A stretch of DNA of 34,976 nt from Promethearchaeota archaeon (lineage in GTDB: Archaea; Asgardarchaeota; Lokiarchaeia; Sigyniarchaeales; SOKP01): the NCBI GenBank assembly GCA_048939015.1, contig JBHLPW010000051.1, positions 1 through 34,976 on the forward strand. Reading direction: 5' to 3'. The position numbers were made by a program, and so were the translations under genes. The notes beneath the pieces were generated by a model. That model was not told the DNA's origin. It worked only from the letters and a program-made list of their open reading frames with translations, and made no database searches. Shown here piece by piece: positions 5,195 through 34,806 of the stretch (its first letter is position 1; each line of letters opens with the position of its first letter).

Positions 5195-6466
5195 TTATAA
5201 TAATCCAGTATATCTCTGAATTTGAGATTGGACTAAAAGAAGTTGGATATTTCTTGACCCGCCAATTACTTCTTCAATTTTACTTATATCACATAGCTCA
5301 TCGACAGGAGTGTTATCAGTAATTGATATACCTCCCATATGTTGTTGAATCTCATAGCAAACTTCGTGTGTGAGTTTAGCTAAGTAATATTTGCCTTGAG
5401 AAGAAATAGACGCAACCCATTTTTCTGCTTCTTTAGATGATTTTTCTGTAAATAGAATTTTATCATCATATACTGTTGCAGCTTGTAGAGCTAAGGCTGT
5501 AGCTGCATTAGTTTTTGTCAATAAATCTGCTAATCCATATCCAACACCCTGATATCTAATTACTGGTTTACCAAATTGTTTTCTTAAGTTGGTATAAATA
5601 ATTCCATAAATTAGACCAGACCAACAAATACCTACGCCACTACCCATTATAGAGAGTCTTTCAGGAACTAAACCTTCAAAAAGTCTTTTATATCCAAGCC
5701 CATCATCTGCTAATACATAATCTTTAGGTACTAAGACATTATCTAATATTGTATGTGATATTTGAACACGAGGCACAGAATTAATTTTTAATCGTTCAGT
5801 CTTTACACCAAATTCACGAGCAATAATAGCTTGAACCATTGTATCTCTCGGATTCCCTTCATCATATACACCATAACATGCAAAATAATCAGCTACCGCA
5901 CCATTAGTAGTAAAAACTTTTTCTCCGTTAAAGATAACCCCATCATCGGTTTTCGTACATTTTGTTGTCAAGTTAACAGCATCAGAACCTCTTTCAGGCT
6001 CAGTAATGCCAATACAACCAATCTTTTCTCCAGATAATAGCTCATCTTGTAATTTTTGTGGTATTTCAGACTCACCTCCATGAACATAATAATGAAATGT
6101 AGGGTTACCACATAAAATTCCTGTTGCAACACGAGCTAATTCTAATTGTGCATCTAAAAGTGAAATGTGTGTACCTAATAATATCTCCTTTTTCATTCCA
6201 AATGGTTTAAACTCTCTCCAAGGGTTAATTCGTTGTATATAACCACGCTTTCCGAGTTCTGGAAGTAATCCATAAACATCTTTAGATCTGTCGATTTTTG
6301 GATGTAAATCTAAGCAGAATTCTTGAAGTTCTTTGCAATATTCTTGTTCTTCATTATTTAGCATTGGAAAAACATTGTCATTAAATATTTTGAAGACATT
6401 TTCCAATGACATCTTTTCGAGAATTTGATCATTAATAATTTTCTCTTGAAACATTTTCTTTTGCAC
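5195..6466 (-). CDS. Acyl-CoA dehydrogenase
   Basis: GITEPERGSDA, NGEKVFTTNG, RKQFGKP, QHMGG; GTG start uncertain (alternative ATGs downstream). Confidence 0.92.
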   Translation of the reverse strand: MQKKMFQEKIINDQILEKMSLENVFKIFNDNVFPMLNNEEQEYCKELQEFCLDLHPKIDRSKDVYGLLPELGKRGYIQRINPWREFKPFGMKKEILLGTHISLLDAQLELARVATGILCGNPTFHYYVHGGESEIPQKLQDELLSGEKIGCIGITEPERGSDAVNLTTKCTKTDDGVIFNGEKVFTTNGAVADYFACYGVYDEGNPRDTMVQAIIAREFGVKTERLKINSVPRVQISHTILDNVLVPKDYVLADDGLGYKRLFEGLVPERLSIMGSGVGICWSGLIYGIIYTNLRKQFGKPVIRYQGVGYGLADLLTKTNAATALALQAATVYDDKILFTEKSSKEAEKWVASISSQGKYYLAKLTHEVCYEIQQHMGGISITDNTPVDELCDISKIEEVIGGSRNIQLLLVQSQIQRYTGLL

Positions 6467-25424: not shown

Positions 25425-26165
25425 ATGTCTAGAGAAGATCAGCTAATAGCACAATTACAAAATGGTTCTCTTCGAGCAATAATATTCGATTTTGATGGTA
25501 CTTTATTAGATGTTCGTCACATTCTTGAAAAAGCAATCAAGGAAGTATTGGAAGACGAGGTAAAACAGACAGATTTTGATATGGAACAAACTATTCAGGA
25601 GATTGGAGCTTTATTAGAGACTATTCAAGGATATCCATTACCCAAAATCTTACTTGAGTCATATGAAATCTTTAAATATATAACTGTACTCAAAACTTTA
25701 TCTTATTTTAGACAATTACGTATTGCTGTTAAGATTTTTTCAAAATATTTAGAATATTCTAAAGAAGCGAAATTCTTTCCATCAGTCAAACCACTATTGA
25801 AAAAAATGGAGAAATCTTATGATCTTTTTATTGTATCTCATAATAAAACAGAAACAATTGTTGAACATCTTGAGAAAGAAGGTTTGAGTGGTTATTTTAA
25901 AGGGATTTATGGGAGTGACAAAATTCCAACTCAAAAACCAGATCCTATGGCACTTCAACCCCCACTTGAAAATTATGAAAAAAGAAACAGAGAAGAATTT
26001 TTAATGATTGGAGATATGCCATCAGATATTATTGCTGGACGTGAAGCGGGCATGTGGACTTTAGGAGTAGCGAGTGGGGTATCAAAAAGAGAAATTTTAA
26101 TGGAAAACAAACCAGATTTTCTAATTAATTCACTAGATGAAGTTTTACACTTGGTAAAAAAATAA
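25425..26165 (+). CDS. HAD-superfamily hydrolase (phosphoglycolate phosphatase-like)
   Basis: FDFDGTL, VSHN, KPDP, IGDMPSD. Confidence 0.9.
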   Translation: MSREDQLIAQLQNGSLRAIIFDFDGTLLDVRHILEKAIKEVLEDEVKQTDFDMEQTIQEIGALLETIQGYPLPKILLESYEIFKYITVLKTLSYFRQLRIAVKIFSKYLEYSKEAKFFPSVKPLLKKMEKSYDLFIVSHNKTETIVEHLEKEGLSGYFKGIYGSDKIPTQKPDPMALQPPLENYEKRNREEFLMIGDMPSDIIAGREAGMWTLGVASGVSKREILMENKPDFLINSLDEVLHLVKK

Positions 26166-26371: not shown

Positions 26372-28759
26372 ATGAGAAAAACTAAAACAAAAGTATTTAT
26401 TCTACTATTACTTTTTCCGATGATTTTAAGCCTAGGATCGCTTACTACAATTGTAAAGGGTGAATCAAATATCCCAGAGCCAAGTCCTAACAACAGTTGG
26501 CATTGGGGTGTTAATATCGGTGATGTGTTTATGTTTGAATCGGAGCTAATTACTACCGATCCTACTACTCACGATGTAATAAACATGTATAGGAATATTG
26601 ATATATACAATATAACTTCTATTGTCAATCAAACAAGTGATCTTTATGGTTTTTATCCGTTTCAGCAAGTTTCAAAAGTTATAATCGATGTATTATGGGA
26701 AAGTTCTGTAGGATCATTATCCTTATCTCCTTTAACTGGTGCTCCTTTATGTATATTCGGGTATAATGAAACACTTAAGAAAGAGATTTACCAAATTGGA
26801 GCGGGAGGTATTACACCTTTTATATATCCCATCAATGACACTGTGTTAGACGTTGCGTCAATGGCGTCAGTATATAACGAAACTTTCTTAACTCCTATTA
26901 TCAATTCAATGGGTGTTTTCAATAAATTTGACTCTTTCAGCTATGATGTTGGTAAAACAGAAATTAAGTTCGAAAATACAACACATGGTTATTACTTTAG
27001 AGCCAGTTATTATCCGAATAATGGTACTTTAAAAGATATGGACGCTTATTACTTAATGAAATCGTATGATTGGATTGTTTTAAATGTGTCAGGAAAAAGA
27101 GTATTTAATCATGATGTTACTGATGAAATCGAATGGGGTGTAAATATTGGAGATGAATTATTTTACTATGTAAATCAAACTGGGTATGACACATATCTTT
27201 CAAGATTAAAAGTACTAGGATTTAATAAGGCTGTCTATTGGAGTAGTAATTGGACCATGTATCCTATGGATTGGCCAATGGTATTTGAGGAAGTATTAGT
27301 TGAAATTTCAGTTTGGAATGGTACAGGGTGGGATGTAGGACCGACTATCCCCTTAACAGCTGCGAATAATTTTTATCCAATGTGCTTACCACTAATGGAA
27401 ATGGGTGGTCAATCTGGGATAATTTTACCTACAAGTAGCACAGTCGAGGATTTTTTATTTATATTTAATAACTATACTGCTGATCTTACCCATTGGTTTC
27501 CTTTTGATACTGTCCATTACGATGTTTCTGGTAATATTCTGAATTTCACAATGTCACAATCGGGTAATGGTCAAGTAGCAGTGGGTGTATATAATCTCGG
27601 TACTGGATTAGTTGAATTACAATATGCAACTTATTTAGGAGAAATCCAAATGTGGTTCGAGTTAGCTGATCCATTAGTGGAATGGAACGTGGATATAGGA
27701 GATACTCTTTTCTTTAAGGAAAATTTTAATGAAGATATGCAAGAAGTTCGATATACTATAACATCTATTGAATACAATTTTGTAGATGTCACAACTATAG
27801 GCTTTCCTATTCCAACTGGTCAACCAAAATATCAATTTTTCACAGAACTATACGGTAATTTTTCTGTCTGGATGAAGGATACTGAAACATGGTATGATGC
27901 GGGTACAGCTTTAATTGCTGCTGCGAATGAATATTGGCCTATTTCCCCATACTCTATGATTGGGAGTATGCCGCTCTTAATGCCAGAAGGAACGGTTGTG
28001 AATGATTTACAATATTTGTTCAATGTCTTGTCAGTATGGTATGATGATATAAGCTATAGTCCCGGTCATGTTATCATGAGTAATACCACAGCATCTTCAG
28101 AATTCCATTTCTATTTTGATGAAACAACAGGCAGGATGACATTTCTAGGGGGAGATAATTATGCTGCGCATGAATGGTGGTATATATCAGCCTACCCTGA
28201 ATTCATTCAAAACCTTAATACAGGCACCAATCATTTCGTGCTTTCAGATAATTTTAATTTGGAACCCACAGTAACAGTTGAGATTGAAGCTGGAGCAACG
28301 GCTGCTGCCCCAGATTTCATATACGCTTTATTACCGTATAATCCACTTGGTATATCATTGCCTAATGGAACTGTTCTATTTTATATGGAACACAAGCTAA
28401 CTGGACACTCTGTAATAGTAGGAAACATCACGATGACGATACAATTTCCATCTTCAATTCAACTTAGTGAAAACTATATTTATCTTTACTCATTTAATAT
28501 GAGTGGGACAGGGGAATGGGATCTAGCACCTCCAGAATTCTATCAATACTCCGTAACGTATGATCTTGTCAATAATCGAATGACGTTTGAAATTGAAGTT
28601 ACTGGTCCTTATATGTTTTTATCTGCGGTATCCTATGAAGCAATACCCGAAGATGGCGGAGGTGAAACACCTCCAATACCAGGCTATGATTTATTCTTCT
28701 TAGCAATAGCAATGATAACTGTATCGGCAATAGTAGTTAAAAAAATACGGAAAAAATAA
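26372..28759 (+). CDS. Secreted, membrane-anchored surface glycoprotein with Loki-CTERM-type sorting tail (paralog A)
   Basis: Signal peptide, three ~190-210 aa repeats beginning W(G/N)V.IGD, many NxS/T sequons, C-terminal PPIPGYDL-TM-KKIRKK. Confidence 0.85.
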   Translation: MRKTKTKVFILLLLFPMILSLGSLTTIVKGESNIPEPSPNNSWHWGVNIGDVFMFESELITTDPTTHDVINMYRNIDIYNITSIVNQTSDLYGFYPFQQVSKVIIDVLWESSVGSLSLSPLTGAPLCIFGYNETLKKEIYQIGAGGITPFIYPINDTVLDVASMASVYNETFLTPIINSMGVFNKFDSFSYDVGKTEIKFENTTHGYYFRASYYPNNGTLKDMDAYYLMKSYDWIVLNVSGKRVFNHDVTDEIEWGVNIGDELFYYVNQTGYDTYLSRLKVLGFNKAVYWSSNWTMYPMDWPMVFEEVLVEISVWNGTGWDVGPTIPLTAANNFYPMCLPLMEMGGQSGIILPTSSTVEDFLFIFNNYTADLTHWFPFDTVHYDVSGNILNFTMSQSGNGQVAVGVYNLGTGLVELQYATYLGEIQMWFELADPLVEWNVDIGDTLFFKENFNEDMQEVRYTITSIEYNFVDVTTIGFPIPTGQPKYQFFTELYGNFSVWMKDTETWYDAGTALIAAANEYWPISPYSMIGSMPLLMPEGTVVNDLQYLFNVLSVWYDDISYSPGHVIMSNTTASSEFHFYFDETTGRMTFLGGDNYAAHEWWYISAYPEFIQNLNTGTNHFVLSDNFNLEPTVTVEIEAGATAAAPDFIYALLPYNPLGISLPNGTVLFYMEHKLTGHSVIVGNITMTIQFPSSIQLSENYIYLYSFNMSGTGEWDLAPPEFYQYSVTYDLVNNRMTFEIEVTGPYMFLSAVSYEAIPEDGGGETPPIPGYDLFFLAIAMITVSAIVVKKIRKK

Positions 28760-28998
28760 TAAAACATTAAATTTATTATTCTTTTTTTTTAAATCATTTT
28801 ATTTATTAATCATTTTTGGTGAAAAGTAATAATATTTATTGGTCTGTACCATTATTTATATTTGAAATTGGGGTGTCTGTTTTATACAATTTTGCACTAA
28901 TTTCAATCATTACTGAGATGCCAACAATTCCATTTGGATTAATATTTTATATGGTATTTCTTGATTCAGAAGATTTAACTCTTGATATTCCTATGCAT

Positions 28999-29126
28999 TT
29001 TTACAGTTTTGTATAAAATAACTATAAAAATAAAGCAAACTTCCCTTTCTATAATCCAATTTTAATTAAAATTATAAATCAATATTGAGTACATTTTAAT
29101 TTTATAATATTGATAGGTCTAAGAAT
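28999..29126 (+). repeat. Duplicated upstream region, copy 2
   Basis: Collinear match to 26245-26371. Confidence 0.85.
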
Positions 29127-31796
29127 ATGAGAAAAACTAAATCAAAAATGTTAATTTTACTACTACTATTTCCGATGATTTTAAGCTTAGGATTGTTTGC
29201 TACTGATATAAAAGGAGGATCAACGATCCCGGAGCCAAGTCCTGACAATAGTTGGCATTGGGGTGTGGATGCAGGTGATATGATAATAATGGAGACGGAG
29301 CTTATCGGGACCAATTTTGGCACTGGTGGAGTAACAATGGTGAGAAATTTCGATATATATAACATAACTTCCATCATAAATGAGACTGGTGATGCAATGA
29401 GTTTACATCCAAATCAAGAATTTTCAAAAGTTATGGTAGATCAATTATGGGAAGATTCAGTAGGAGTTTTATCGCCTTCAATAAACGTTAATATGCCTAT
29501 TGCAAGTTTTGGATATAATGATACTCTTTCAAAAGAGTTTTACCAACCTATGCCTTACAGTCTTGCCCCTATGATACTGCCTATAAACGATACTGTTGTA
29601 GATGTTTCCTTAATGGCTTCAATACTTAATGAAACGTATGTAAGTCCTATGGAAGGTTTCTTCAATAAATTCGACGATTTCATTGTTGATATAGGTAAAA
29701 CAGAATTTACATTCATAAATAGTACTGATGGATACTATTTTAGAGCCAGTTATTACCCAAATAATGGAACGATAAAAGATATGGATGCATATTATTTAAT
29801 TAATATGGGAGCCTGGGTCTCGTTTAATATAACATCAAAAAGAGTATTTGATTTTGATGGTACTGATGAAGTCGTATGGGGTGTTAGTCCTGGAGAAACG
29901 TATTATTATTACGTGAATCAAACCGGATATGGGACATATCTAACAAGATTAGAAATAGAAGGATTTAATAAAGCAGTTTATTGGAGTAAGAATTGGACAG
30001 CATTTAATATTCTCTGGCCAATGGTATTTGAAGAAGTGTTAATTTCAATGTCAATGTGGAATGGAACAGGATGGCAGTCGGTAATGACAAGCTACCCTTT
30101 ATCAGCTGCGAATAATTTTTACCCAATGTGTTACCCGATTTTGGAAATGTTAACAGCATCAGGACAACTTGGATTTCTTATTCCGACAAGTGCGACATTC
30201 GATGATTTTATGTTTATGGTTAATAACCACACAGCCGACCTTACTACATGGTTTCCTTTTGATACAGTTTATTATGAAATTACCGGCAATATTTTGAATA
30301 TGACATTGATGCAATCTGGAAATGGTCAGGAGGCTCATGCTATATTCAATTTTAATACTGGATTTGCAGAATTACAATCCGTATATTATTTGGGAGAATT
30401 ATTTATATGGTTTGAGAAAGCTGATCAATTAGTGGAATGGGGTGTTGGTATCGGAGATTATCTTTACTTGACGCAAAATTTTGGTGATAGCTTAACTAAC
30501 AAACGAGCCATTATAACATCTATTAATTATGCTTTTTACGATGTAACTACATTGGGCGTTTCAATACCATCAGGGCAGCCTAAATTTCAGTTTTTCACAG
30601 AAATTCATGCTGAATTTGCTCAATGGTTGCCAGCCACTGAAGAGTGGTATACTTATGGTACGAGTATACTTTCTGCTGCGAATGAATATTGGCCATTTGC
30701 TCCTTATTTAATGGGGACCTCTCCGCCACTTTTAATGCCAAAAGGAACAACTACAACAGATTTACAATATTGGTCCGATTCGATGGCATCTATGTATGAT
30801 AGTATAACTTATAATCCTGGTCATATTATCTTTAGAAATACCACAGCAAATAAAGAACTGAACATGATTTTTAACGAAACAACGGGAATATTTAAATATT
30901 TTGGTGGATATTACTATATGGGCGATTGGGTGTATATGTCAATGTACCAAGAATTCATTCAAAACTTGAACACTGGAACAAACAATTTCGTACTTTTAGA
31001 TAATTATGATATGGATTCAACAGTAACGGTTAATATTGATGTCCAAGTTGGGAGCACCACACCAGATTTCATCTATGCCTTATTACCCTATAATCCGATT
31101 GGAATATCATTGCCTAATGGAACTGCATTACTCTACTTGGATCATAAAATAACTAATTATACTGTAATAGATGGAAACGTTACTATGACTGTTCAGTTCC
31201 CATCTTCAATTCACTTTAGTATAGATACTATCTATTTTTGGGTTTGGAACGTGAGTAGTACATCCCAATGGATTTTACCAACTCAAACTATAATCTATAA
31301 TTACGGATCAAATTCAATAACTATAGAGTTTCCCATAACAGAACCCTATTATGAGTTATATGCTGTCTCAGTTGAATATGGCCCACCTAGTAGTTCCACA
31401 TTGAGTTCAGATGCGGGAGTTCCTACTGACGATGATGGAGATTTCACTCTTACATGGGACGCTGCTACTGGAGCTGTGAGTTACTCAGTATATGAATACT
31501 CAAAGTTCATCACAGAAATAAACGGTTCTTTAACATCATTAGCTACTGACATTACGAGTCTCTCACACTCATTGACAGGATATACTAACGGAACATATTA
31601 CTTTATTGTAGTCGCCCATAATAGTGCTGGTGATACGCTCACTAATTGTATTTCAGTTGAAGTTGCAATTCCTCCAGAACCACCTACTGATGGCGGTGGA
31701 ACACCCCCAATACCAGGTTATGATTTATTCTTCTTAGCATTAGCAATGATTACTGTATCTACGATTGCAGTTAAAAAGGTACGAAAAAAAAAATAA
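29127..31796 (+). CDS. Surface glycoprotein paralog B with an extra FN3/Ig-like module and Loki-CTERM-type tail
   Basis: Collinear with paralog A (IPEPSP.NSWHWGV, YYFRASYYPNNGT, AANNFYPMC, AANEYWP); extra ~95 aa module FTLTW..A.SYSVY..GTYYFIVVAHN..G at ~31380-31670. Confidence 0.85.
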   Translation: MRKTKSKMLILLLLFPMILSLGLFATDIKGGSTIPEPSPDNSWHWGVDAGDMIIMETELIGTNFGTGGVTMVRNFDIYNITSIINETGDAMSLHPNQEFSKVMVDQLWEDSVGVLSPSINVNMPIASFGYNDTLSKEFYQPMPYSLAPMILPINDTVVDVSLMASILNETYVSPMEGFFNKFDDFIVDIGKTEFTFINSTDGYYFRASYYPNNGTIKDMDAYYLINMGAWVSFNITSKRVFDFDGTDEVVWGVSPGETYYYYVNQTGYGTYLTRLEIEGFNKAVYWSKNWTAFNILWPMVFEEVLISMSMWNGTGWQSVMTSYPLSAANNFYPMCYPILEMLTASGQLGFLIPTSATFDDFMFMVNNHTADLTTWFPFDTVYYEITGNILNMTLMQSGNGQEAHAIFNFNTGFAELQSVYYLGELFIWFEKADQLVEWGVGIGDYLYLTQNFGDSLTNKRAIITSINYAFYDVTTLGVSIPSGQPKFQFFTEIHAEFAQWLPATEEWYTYGTSILSAANEYWPFAPYLMGTSPPLLMPKGTTTTDLQYWSDSMASMYDSITYNPGHIIFRNTTANKELNMIFNETTGIFKYFGGYYYMGDWVYMSMYQEFIQNLNTGTNNFVLLDNYDMDSTVTVNIDVQVGSTTPDFIYALLPYNPIGISLPNGTALLYLDHKITNYTVIDGNVTMTVQFPSSIHFSIDTIYFWVWNVSSTSQWILPTQTIIYNYGSNSITIEFPITEPYYELYAVSVEYGPPSSSTLSSDAGVPTDDDGDFTLTWDAATGAVSYSVYEYSKFITEINGSLTSLATDITSLSHSLTGYTNGTYYFIVVAHNSAGDTLTNCISVEVAIPPEPPTDGGGTPPIPGYDLFFLALAMITVSTIAVKKVRKKK

Positions 31797-32050: not shown

Positions 32051-33718
32051 ATGGAACTCGAAAGACCAGAGAAAAAAGGATATGAAATAGCGGCAGAAAT
32101 AGAACAAAAGAAATCCACAGAAGAAAGAATGCAAGAAGAGTTGAGATATGAAAAACGTCATCAAGATTGGACTTATAAGTTAATGAAGTACAATCCTATT
32201 GATCCCCTAAATGATTTATATCGATATATTATCAAAAGAATGGATTTAAAACCCATTGAAGGGCGATTACAATGGTGGGCAGCTTATATATACATTAAAT
32301 GGGCTGTTAGAACATTCTGGAACTTCAAAGCAGAATATCCAAAAGGCAATATGTTTCCAGAATATGGTCCAGGTATTTTGGTGGGAAATCACGAATCACA
32401 CATTGATCCATTCTTTTATGGAGCAGCTTGTCATCGTAGGATTCGATATATGAGCAAATTGGATAACTTTAAGACACCTATTGTTAGAACTCTCTTCAAT
32501 AACCTTGGAGCTTTTAAAGTTGATCGTGAAAACCCTGAACGAGGATGGGAAAAAGCAAAAGAAGTAATCCAAGGAGGAGAGTGGGTTGGAATCTTCCCAG
32601 AAGGAACACGTTCTAAGGACGGAACATTAGGAGAATTTAAAACAGGAGCAGTTAGACTGGCAATTGAAATGGATGTTCCAATTGTACCTATGGCAGTGGT
32701 GGGTTCTAGGAATGCTTTGCCAAAAGGTAATTTAGTAATGAAACCGACTCAAGTAATAGTACGGGTTGGTGATCCAATTTACTATAAAGATTATGATATC
32801 AATAGCGTATCTTATGAAGATATTAGAAGATTAACAGATGAATTGCGAACTTTTGTTTGGGAATTGCGTGAAGGAATCTATGGAAAAGAAGATATAGAAG
32901 AACTTTCCATTGGTTCACCAGAAGAAACTGAGAAAAAACCTAAATTTAATTTTATGAGCTATTTAAAAGATCAAGGGAAAGGAATTCTTAGACTTATTGA
33001 TGATTCATGGTATACTCTTTTGAAGAGTTTGGAAGAATTTGGAGTACGTCGACAATTTCAAAAAACAATAATGACATTTTCAGGGGAATTAGTTGGTTCT
33101 TGGTCTGATATGATGATGCCTTATAAAGTAATTGATTTTGAAAAATACATTCCTAAAGAAGGAGGAGTTCTTCTTTGTCCAAGTCATAATTCTGAATGGG
33201 ATGTTCTTATACTAGCCACAACCTTAATTCGTCATCCTCCCAGACGCGTAATGTGGCAGATGGCAAAACAGTCACTATTTAAGATACCAATAGTTAATGC
33301 CTGGGTACGAAATCATCATGCTTTTCCTTTGAAACGAGGAGAACATGATGTAGACGCTTATAATTATGCAAGAGAACTTCTTGAACAAGGAGAATGTGTT
33401 TGTACATATCCTGAAGGAACTACAAATACTGGAAATGGTCAACTTTTAGAAGGTCATACTGGTCCTATGCGATTAGCAATAGAAACACAAGTACCAATAA
33501 TTCCTATTGGAATAACGGGCACTGAAGCTACATACCCTAAGCATGCTAAAATGTTAAATTTCTATAAAGGGCAAATACTAAAAGCAGGACCACCTTTTAT
33601 GGAACATCAGAAATATTGGGGTAAACCAATGCCCGACTACAATGAGCTTAAAAGATTAACAACAAAAATGATGGATCAAATCAGAGACTTGCTTTTCTAC
33701 GGCGAACCAGATGCTTGA
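32051..33718 (+). CDS. Tandem (two-domain) PlsC-family glycerolipid acyltransferase
   Basis: Domain 1 NHESHID..FPEGTRS; domain 2 SHNSEWD..YPEGT; both HX4D motifs intact; start GTG 32042 or ATG 32051. Confidence 0.9.
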   Translation: MELERPEKKGYEIAAEIEQKKSTEERMQEELRYEKRHQDWTYKLMKYNPIDPLNDLYRYIIKRMDLKPIEGRLQWWAAYIYIKWAVRTFWNFKAEYPKGNMFPEYGPGILVGNHESHIDPFFYGAACHRRIRYMSKLDNFKTPIVRTLFNNLGAFKVDRENPERGWEKAKEVIQGGEWVGIFPEGTRSKDGTLGEFKTGAVRLAIEMDVPIVPMAVVGSRNALPKGNLVMKPTQVIVRVGDPIYYKDYDINSVSYEDIRRLTDELRTFVWELREGIYGKEDIEELSIGSPEETEKKPKFNFMSYLKDQGKGILRLIDDSWYTLLKSLEEFGVRRQFQKTIMTFSGELVGSWSDMMMPYKVIDFEKYIPKEGGVLLCPSHNSEWDVLILATTLIRHPPRRVMWQMAKQSLFKIPIVNAWVRNHHAFPLKRGEHDVDAYNYARELLEQGECVCTYPEGTTNTGNGQLLEGHTGPMRLAIETQVPIIPIGITGTEATYPKHAKMLNFYKGQILKAGPPFMEHQKYWGKPMPDYNELKRLTTKMMDQIRDLLFYGEPDA

Positions 33719-33738
33719 GTTATTGAGGAACTAAATAG

Positions 33739-34806
33739 ATGGAAGTAAGTCAACAAAAAACTCAGAAAAAAATTAAAGTAGGCATTCCACGAGCTCTTCA
33801 TTTTTATAGATATTTTCCTTTCTGGAAAAAATTACTTGAAGAATTAGATGTGGAAATCGTTTTAAGTCCACCCACCAATAAGAAAATAGTTGAAGAGGGT
33901 GTTACTCATGGATTTGGAGAGCTCTGTATTCCTGTGAAGATTTATTATGGTCAGACATTAAAATTATTACGAGATCATCCTGATTTGGATTACATTTTTG
34001 TACCTAGATATGTAGCAGAAGTTAAGGAAGCTTATTTCTGTCCTAAGTTTTTATCTCTACCTGACGTGATTAAAATTTTACCAGAAGTACCGAAACTATT
34101 AAACTTCGAAGTAAATGTCAAGGAGTTTCCAATAGCAACATCTGCAATTGAACTTGGAAAACAATTAGGAAAAAACCAAAATCAAGCTTTAAATGCATAT
34201 AGGGAAGCTCAAAAATATTTTGATGAATATCATAGATTTTTACGCGATGGAGCTGCAGTTAATCATGCATTACGTCTAGTAGAAAGGGATCGTCCATTTA
34301 TTCTACCCAAGCGAAAGCATAAAGGAGACCTAAAATTCTTACTTTTAGGGCATGCTTATAACATTTTTGATACCTTTATTAATTTGGATTTCCAGAAAAA
34401 ACTACGAGATCAAGGAGTTAAAGTTATAACAATTGAGAACTTACCAGAATCAATATTTAAAGAACCAGTAATTATTAATCCAAAAGGTGGAAGGCTTCGA
34501 AACTACTGGAAGCATGAAGAAGAAATTTTAGCTGCTATGCGATATTTCCTTACTAAAGGTCGTGAAGAGATAGATGGCGTTATTTTTCTTATTAGTTTTG
34601 CTTGCGGTCCAGATAGTCTTATCTCAGAATTAATTAAACACGATATGAAAGTTGTTGGATTACCCTTCTTAGAAATTATTATGGATGAACATTCAGGAGA
34701 GGCAGGTTTATTAACACGTGTAGAAAGTTTTGTTGAGATGGTAAGACGCAAAAAGAAAAAGCTCGAGATAGATTCAAGAAAAACTCAATATGTGAAAACT
34801 GTTTAA
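33739..34806 (+). CDS. DUF2229 / acyl-CoA dehydratase activase-related protein (2-hydroxyacyl-CoA dehydratase-like Fe-S subunit)
   Basis: KVGIPRAL..Y.PFW, ELCIPVK, YFCPKF..LPD, LGHAYN..D..IN, SFACGPDS, DEHSGEAG..TRVESF; three conserved Cys. Confidence 0.85.
   Translation: MEVSQQKTQKKIKVGIPRALHFYRYFPFWKKLLEELDVEIVLSPPTNKKIVEEGVTHGFGELCIPVKIYYGQTLKLLRDHPDLDYIFVPRYVAEVKEAYFCPKFLSLPDVIKILPEVPKLLNFEVNVKEFPIATSAIELGKQLGKNQNQALNAYREAQKYFDEYHRFLRDGAAVNHALRLVERDRPFILPKRKHKGDLKFLLLGHAYNIFDTFINLDFQKKLRDQGVKVITIENLPESIFKEPVIINPKGGRLRNYWKHEEEILAAMRYFLTKGREEIDGVIFLISFACGPDSLISELIKHDMKVVGLPFLEIIMDEHSGEAGLLTRVESFVEMVRRKKKKLEIDSRKTQYVKTV

Follow-up and report, generated by a model that had tools for sequence, protein, structure and literature searches.

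A conserved Lokiarchaeial gene pair encoding a tandem PlsC-type acyltransferase and a stand-alone DUF2229 protein related to PlsA and Ger

The closest described relatives of the system considered here are two bacterial enzymes that convert lipid esters into ethers: the anaerobic plasmalogen synthase PlsA/PlsR, known from Clostridium perfringens (CPE1194/1195) and, in single-gene forms, from Enterococcus and Lactococcus, and the glycerol ester reductase Ger of Thermotoga maritima (Tmari_0479) and Desulfatibacillum alkenivorans. The present work concerns two adjacent genes, plsC and D, that lie near the end of a 34,976-nt window of DNA from a Promethearchaeota archaeon; the window is the whole of one contig (G000:C34) of a 4.86-Mb, 94.9%-complete Asgard metagenome-assembled genome (MAG). 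The first gene codes for a tandem PlsC-type acyltransferase, and the second for a stand-alone protein of the DUF2229 family, which provides the reduction domain of Ger and PlsA (PMC13159169). The only characterised members of the DUF2229 branch are PlsA/PlsR and Ger (PMC13159169; PMC8788747). We conclude that the plsC-D pair is best explained as the leading part of a lipid gene cluster of Lokiarchaeia.

The product of D matches PF09989 (DUF2229) at profile positions 1-217 of 218 with 156.2 bits (cut-off 29.4). A match to PF06050 (HGD-D) is confined to residues 277-334, a tail of about 60 residues that scores 27.7 bits and remains below the 28.4 cut-off, and profile search revealed no activase domain in D itself. 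Three cysteines, C63, C101, and C289, are invariant in a 45-sequence alignment. The AlphaFold 2 (AF2) model of D has a pLDDT of 92, and its top 20 Foldseek matches in the PDB are all HadB/C (2-hydroxyisocaproyl-CoA dehydratase), DCCP (double-cubane cluster protein), BzdNO, or MbdON, with a probability of 1.0. Based on the full DUF2229 match, the invariant cysteines, and the fold matches of the AF2 model, D is, as judged from sequence and prediction, a catalytic subunit of the ATP-dependent benzoyl-CoA reductase/2-hydroxyacyl-CoA dehydratase (BCR/HAD) radical-enzyme superfamily, in its DUF2229 branch. The fold is common to D, the 2-hydroxyacyl-CoA dehydratases (HadBC with HadI, HgdAB with HgdC), and the class I benzoyl-CoA reductases (BzdNOPQ, MbdONPQ), with Foldseek E-values of 9e-10 to 4e-07 and TM of about 0.5, and a heterodimer with interface clusters and an ATP-dependent activase, as in those enzymes, is predicted here as well. 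D is, however, only 11-16% identical to them and resembles HGD-D only in its tail, and, unlike HadBC and HgdAB, it is encoded in a cluster without CoA-transferase or dehydrogenase context. An earlier, sequence-only reading of the window had named grouping with the dehydratases of amino-acid fermentation as one of three outcomes that would speak against a lipid role; a full-length DUF2229 match with only a sub-threshold HGD-D tail places D apart from the HgdAB type. Homologs of D numbered 2714 among 1.84 billion representatives searched. The closest ones are stand-alone proteins of ca. 330 aa (33-40% identity), along with a few D-D' fusions of ca. 750 aa. Database labels of close homologs are Promethearchaeota or Lokiarchaeota.

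A second subunit and an activase, which the sequence-only reading had noted as missing from the window, were found on another contig of the same genome, C75. The last 151 nt of the window overlap the end of C75 (Table 1), indicating that the real gene order spans both contigs. In the joined order, tandem plsC and D are followed by a spacer of ca. 550 nt, the genes of a 983-aa and a 467-aa protein, ca. 10 kb of other genes, and then D', the activase gene B, and a third PlsC-type gene, PlsC3. The last three are located ca. 15 kb downstream of D, and all of the genes named are on one strand. Relatives L019-L022, L031, and L094 have these genes in the same order on contiguous sequence, and in other Lokiarchaeia D' and B are directly adjacent to D. 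The cysteines C51, C81, and C309 of D' are invariant, as are C148 and C187 of B, which also carries a C-terminal CxxCxxxC..C motif. Altogether, the genome contains two DUF2229 genes in addition to D and seven BcrAD_BadFG matches; lack of an activase partner, which had been put forward as a ground for doubt, therefore does not apply.

A model of the D+D' complex reached an ipSAE of 0.72, compared to 0.02 for the best control; 58 of 80 solved complexes attained this mark, as did two of 110 mismatched pairs. Model runs agreed in at least 80% of contacts, partner pLDDT was at least 87, and all six cluster cysteines (three from D and three from D') are in the predicted D/D' interface. The model thus supports pairing of D and D' as a heterodimer, with the qualification that, since related heterodimers have been solved, a pass may reflect likeness to known complexes and is not proof of binding. 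D very probably works as one subunit of a three-protein Fe-S radical enzyme with a functional tie to the PlsC genes.

In the plsC product, PF01553 matches two stretches (196.5 bits, cut-off 23), and TIGR00530, an NCBIfam AGPAT-domain model, scores 165 bits against a cut-off of 102.95. The catalytic HX4D (motif I) and PEGT (motif III) are intact in both domains, which bears out the tandem PlsC assignment of the sequence-only reading. The closest solved structure is that of T. maritima PlsC (PDB 5kym, E 7e-17); the tandem protein shares the two motifs and the above-cut-off TIGR00530 match with T. maritima PlsC and AGPAT, but differs from the former in having two catalytic domains in one chain, and no strong hydrophobic segment was seen in it, unlike T. 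maritima PlsC and AGPAT. Orthologs within the genus are 78-87% identical. In other Lokiarchaeia families, the two PlsC domains are encoded by separate genes, while Helarchaeota-like genomes have a three-domain protein of 872-876 aa. The 94.9%-complete genome has three PF01553 domains, all of them in the cluster, and no PlsY was found in this genome.

A scan of species-representative genomes, seeded by a 14-sequence alignment, returned 80 loci. Synteny was counted at the 49 archaeal loci with enough upstream sequence, scoring PlsC-family genes located on the same strand within 3 kb upstream of D. Such a gene was present in 47 of them, at a distance of 50 nt or less in 36; gaps are often 1-40 nt long, or the stops overlap. 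Adjacency of plsC and D is therefore not due to chance. In the window, the two co-oriented open reading frames are separated by 20 nt, with GAGG in front of D; the operon that the sequence-only reading proposed on these grounds, which can be read directly from the DNA, is thus matched by a conserved unit, and its linkage is retained across Lokiarchaeia, so that unconserved linkage, another of the outcomes named against a lipid role, does not apply. At 18 loci from seven families of the class, one or more PlsC genes precede the D ortholog, and outside this genus D is then directly followed by D' and B. Cultured P. syntrophicum MK-D1 carries PlsC-D-D'-B (L085). A compact cluster, HAD phosphatase-PlsCx2-D-D'-B-PlsC3, is intact in L058, L065, L067, and L076, and would be the ancestral form. 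In the present genus the cluster is pulled apart, with D' and B ca. 15 kb away and a system of PlsA/PlsR architecture directly after D.

Within a 200-genome sample of the phylum, D orthologs were found in 37 of 41 genomes of family f1, in two of three of family f2, and essentially nowhere else. Loss was observed as well. Two sister-genus genomes, both ca. 100% complete, keep PlsCx2 and PlsC3 adjacent (G146:C6:69321-72182; G230:C14) and have no DUF2229 gene anywhere, apparently through clean loss of D-D'-B. The plsC-D pair has disappeared from two congeners that retain the fused protein and D', and D is lost or truncated in congeners G015, G002, G023, and G005. The idea that PlsC always travels with D was rejected, given the two complete genomes without DUF2229 and the presence of PF01553 in three Asgard families without a D ortholog. 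In a 76%-complete genome of a further Asgard family, f21, an 83%-identical plsC-D pair is located on a short contig (G095:C6:512-2152); mis-binning of a Lokiarchaeial contig or recent transfer is the probable cause.

Compared part by part with PlsA/PlsR and Ger, B corresponds to their activase, with two bridging-cluster cysteines and a Cys-rich linker, D to the first reduction module, and D' to the second. The DUF2229 reduction domain with an HGD-D tail and occurrence in anaerobes are also shared. The archaeal parts differ in being separate proteins (D, 355 aa; D', 396 aa; a one-domain activase, B). Linkage to glycerolipid acyltransferases and presence of a pair with the PlsA/PlsR architecture ca. 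550 nt downstream are features of the archaeal system. That pair is beyond the window and was out of view of the sequence-only reading. The 983-aa protein contains two activase domains and DUF2229, while the 467-aa protein has no Pfam match; they align to the N- and C-terminal parts, respectively, of one 1419-aa protein of MK-D1 (E 3.5e-195 and 1e-21), and so represent a PlsA/PlsR-style split of a Ger-type protein. It is presumably a homolog of this class that was reported for Lokiarchaeota by Sahonero-Canavesi et al. The BBD core (a pair of activase domains joined to the first DUF2229 domain), which is conserved in all alkyl-ether producers (PMC13159169), is present in the 983-aa protein but absent from D.

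The following scheme is proposed for the cluster. The two PlsC domains would move fatty-acyl groups from a thioester donor to a glycerol-phosphate backbone, yielding an ester lipid. D would pair with D', each holding a [4Fe-4S] cluster on its three invariant cysteines at the subunit interface, and activase B would hydrolyse ATP and inject a low-potential electron into D/D'. D/D' would then act on the PlsC product, reducing and dehydrating an acyl-ester carbonyl so that a vinyl or alkyl ether results, the reaction performed by PlsA/PlsR and Ger in bacteria. The acceptor of the acyl group, the ester acted on, and the ether formed are named here as suggested by analogy. Retention of PlsC in genomes from which all DUF2229 genes are gone fits a reductase acting after, not before, the acyltransferases. 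We put the probability of an ester-to-ether lipid function of PlsC-D-D'-B at roughly 0.45.

A number of observations weigh against such a function. In a quick maximum-likelihood tree of D proteins (IQ-TREE, D' as outgroup), which takes in no experimentally verified PlsA or Ger, three groups are seen: D domains of fused proteins (support 99), bacterial stand-alone D (94), and Asgard stand-alone D (93); their branching order is not fixed by the tree. D thus falls outside the clade of fused two-activase and DUF2229 proteins with the PlsA/Ger architecture, it is only 28% identical to the D domain of the fused protein in its own genome, and the stand-alone clade has no characterised member. Given the separate clade and the low identity, D is best described as a paralog of PlsA/Ger in which nothing is fused; it did not arise as a split copy. 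The split PlsA-like system that the sequence-only reading had suggested stands in its DUF2229 kinship and its separate D, D', and B parts, but not as a split form of the fused proteins. PF01553 is also found in three further Asgard families in which no D ortholog was found. In MK-D1, which carries the cluster, lipid analysis revealed only archaeal lipids, by a method that may miss ester lipids (PMC13400652). Finally, the start of B in this assembly is ATA where all aligned orthologs have ATG (C75 about 6430-6450, minus strand), and its first canonical start (C75 6340) would delete the N-terminal DxGS nucleotide-binding motif. Possible reasons for the ATA are an error in the MAG consensus, use of a rare start codon, and a mutation that inactivates the gene.

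Bacterial relatives add to these objections. Stand-alone D-D'-B cassettes of Clostridia, Actinomycetota, and Desulfotomaculia, annotated as 'acyl-CoA dehydratase activase-related protein', share the three-gene order, protein sizes, and invariant cysteines of the archaeal cassette at 36-40% identity. Unlike nearly all of the archaeal loci, none of the 22 bacterial loci carrying the cassette has a PlsC neighbour within 8 kb. In spore-forming Clostridia and Desulfotomaculia (L119, L111, L115, L116, L108, L113), the cassette is located between spoVA genes (SpoVAD, GerA-type SpoVAF) and lysA. Among the PlsA homologs of Bacillota, those with no activation domain, to which we assign these cassettes, were described in 2026 as having an unclear role (PMC13274423). 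A bacterial fused PlsA-type protein was sought in five cassette-carrying genomes, and only single-domain activases and a fragmented candidate from Acetivibrio straminisolvens were found.

Table 1. Features of the plsC-D locus and of the adjoining contig C75 (coordinates refer to the window unless a contig is given)
Feature	Position	Strand	Details
Tandem PlsC-type acyltransferase (plsC)	32051-33718	+	555 aa from ATG 32051; 558 aa from GTG 32042; stop TGA ends at 33718; PF01553 x2, TIGR00530
Acyltransferase domain 1	32348-32698	+	PF01553 E 2.3e-30; HX4D (HESHID) and FPEGT
Acyltransferase domain 2	33140-33514	+	PF01553 E 4.0e-27; HX4D (HNSEWD) and YPEGT
Intergenic spacer	33719-33738	+	20 nt; GAGG at 33725-33728, 10 nt before ATG of D; read from sequence
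Subunit D, stand-alone DUF2229 iron-sulfur protein	33739-34806	+	355 aa; PF09989 E 1.3e-45; alpha-like half of predicted D/D' heterodimer
Contig-end overlap, C34 to C75	34826-34976		last 151 nt of window vs reverse complement of C75 end, 148/151 identical
983-aa protein	C75, ca. 550 nt downstream of D		two activase domains and DUF2229
467-aa protein	C75, after 983-aa gene		no Pfam match
D'	C75	same as D after join	396 aa; DUF2229 N-terminal part, HGD-D tail
Activase B, single-domain BcrAD_BadFG	C75	minus on C75	profile match
PlsC3, third PlsC-type gene	C75, directly after B		233 aa
HAD_2-type phosphatase	25425-26165	+	246 aa; PF13419 E 3.8e-28; first gene of conserved cluster in relatives

Two large paralogous surface-protein genes (26372-31796) separate the HAD phosphatase gene from plsC in the window. 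They look like an insertion into the cluster, since a HAD ortholog is directly upstream of plsC in relatives (L020-L022, L031, and L058; the same arrangement is found in L065, L067, L070, and L076). Recent horizontal acquisition was rejected on composition, the G+C content of the region (0.35) being close to the window range of 0.27-0.34. The ca. 10 kb between the 467-aa gene and D' include genes for TrmO, an M20 peptidase, a UbiA-family prenyltransferase, and an enoyl-CoA hydratase. The UbiA-family protein (279 aa; C75:14262-15101), encoded between the two halves of the cluster, has weak NCBIfam matches to prenyltransferase and GGGP geranylgeranyltransferase models, below cut-off. The enoyl-CoA hydratase gene (C75:7944-8705) adjoins D' and is transcribed in the opposite direction.

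Variants of the cluster were also observed. In the Helarchaeota-like form (L026:6111-8957; L036, L084, L087), the protein with three PlsC domains precedes D-D'-B, and a LarA-type gene (lactate racemase family) and a gene for a 488-490 aa HAD protein are likewise located ahead of it. Some Lokiarchaeia have a paralogous system with the order D-B-D' (L089:6627-9038, L094:7872-10385, L095, L097, L098), which in L094 comes just after the fused PlsA/PlsR-type pair. The D protein of this system, ca. 800 aa long, carries a fused VAO-type FAD_binding_4 domain of ca. 450 aa at its N terminus, and is nested inside the Asgard stand-alone D clade. Likeness of the FAD domain to alkyl-DHAP synthase was considered and discarded: the AGPS match is weak (E 1.4e-05) and ranks behind cytokinin dehydrogenases, EncM, and DprE1, and no ether-lipid inference is drawn from it.

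Three other explanations of the locus were weighed. D/D'/B could be an ATP-driven ketyl-radical BCR/HAD enzyme that, although functionally coupled to the acyltransferases, has another substrate and makes no ethers; it might dehydrate or reduce a substituted acyl thioester or acyl ester to give an unusual acyl chain, or work on a non-membrane ester product. The uncharacterised stand-alone clade and the bacterial cassette without lipid-gene context are consistent with this, as are the LarA-type 2-hydroxyacid racemase homolog in Helarchaeota-like variants, the nested D paralog with its VAO-type FAD domain, and, in this genome, the enoyl-CoA hydratase gene beside D'. We nevertheless consider this explanation less likely than the ester-to-ether function: all DUF2229 enzymes characterised so far reduce esters to ethers, the cluster lacks genes for a CoA-transferase or a 2-hydroxyacid dehydrogenase, and the survival of PlsC after loss of every DUF2229 gene speaks against a role of D/D'/B in providing the acyl donor.

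Alternatively, in this genus the ester-to-ether step could be performed by the 983-aa/467-aa pair, with D/D'/B carrying out a related but distinct step on the same lipids, at the second ester position or in vinyl-ether saturation. The pair has the Ger/PlsA core architecture and directly follows plsC-D in most genomes of the genus (L019-L022, L031, L032, L037, L038, L094), and several PlsA-like homologs per genome are also present in Bacillota (PMC13274423). In other Lokiarchaeia families, however, the gene for the fused protein is distant from the PlsC cluster (3.83 Mb versus 0.34 Mb in MK-D1), and D-D'-B, not the fused pair, is the partner conserved beside PlsC, which makes such a division of labour improbable. 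Least of all do we expect D of this genome to be a decaying remnant whose partners have moved off and whose activase start has been lost, so that linkage persists without present function. Relocation of D' and B, the ATA start of B, and the loss or truncation of D in four congeners would agree with decay, but the D reading frame is open over its full length and keeps every invariant residue, its product is 83-96% identical to orthologs across the genus, D', B, and PlsC3 are otherwise intact, and ATA may be a consensus error or a rare start codon.

Earlier work lists homologs of PlsC and PlsY (PMC6737245) and, separately, of Ger (PMC13159169) in Asgard genomes, and our literature search found no paper that ties Asgard acyltransferases, physically or evolutionarily, to an unfused PlsA-like reductase. 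At stake for the lipid divide and eukaryogenesis is whether Asgard archaea have fatty-acid-based lipids, and whether these are ester- or ether-linked. We tentatively propose that Lokiarchaeia (Promethearchaeia), including cultured species, may assemble fatty-acyl glycerolipids by means of a dedicated operon (HAD phosphatase, three PlsC-type domains, and a fully unfused three-protein PlsA/Ger relative) and turn these lipids into alkyl or alkenyl ethers of non-isoprenoid type. If true, this would be a second lipid route, of bacterial/eukaryote style, in the archaeal relatives of eukaryotes. Because the conserved cluster is small and present in cultured MK-D1, its genes form a well-delimited set to express anaerobically and to follow by targeted lipidomics. 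The proposal would also provide the first function for the widespread bacterial stand-alone D-D'-B cassette. That cassette is frequent in Clostridia and Actinomycetota, and whatever role is established for the archaeal proteins would probably apply there as well.

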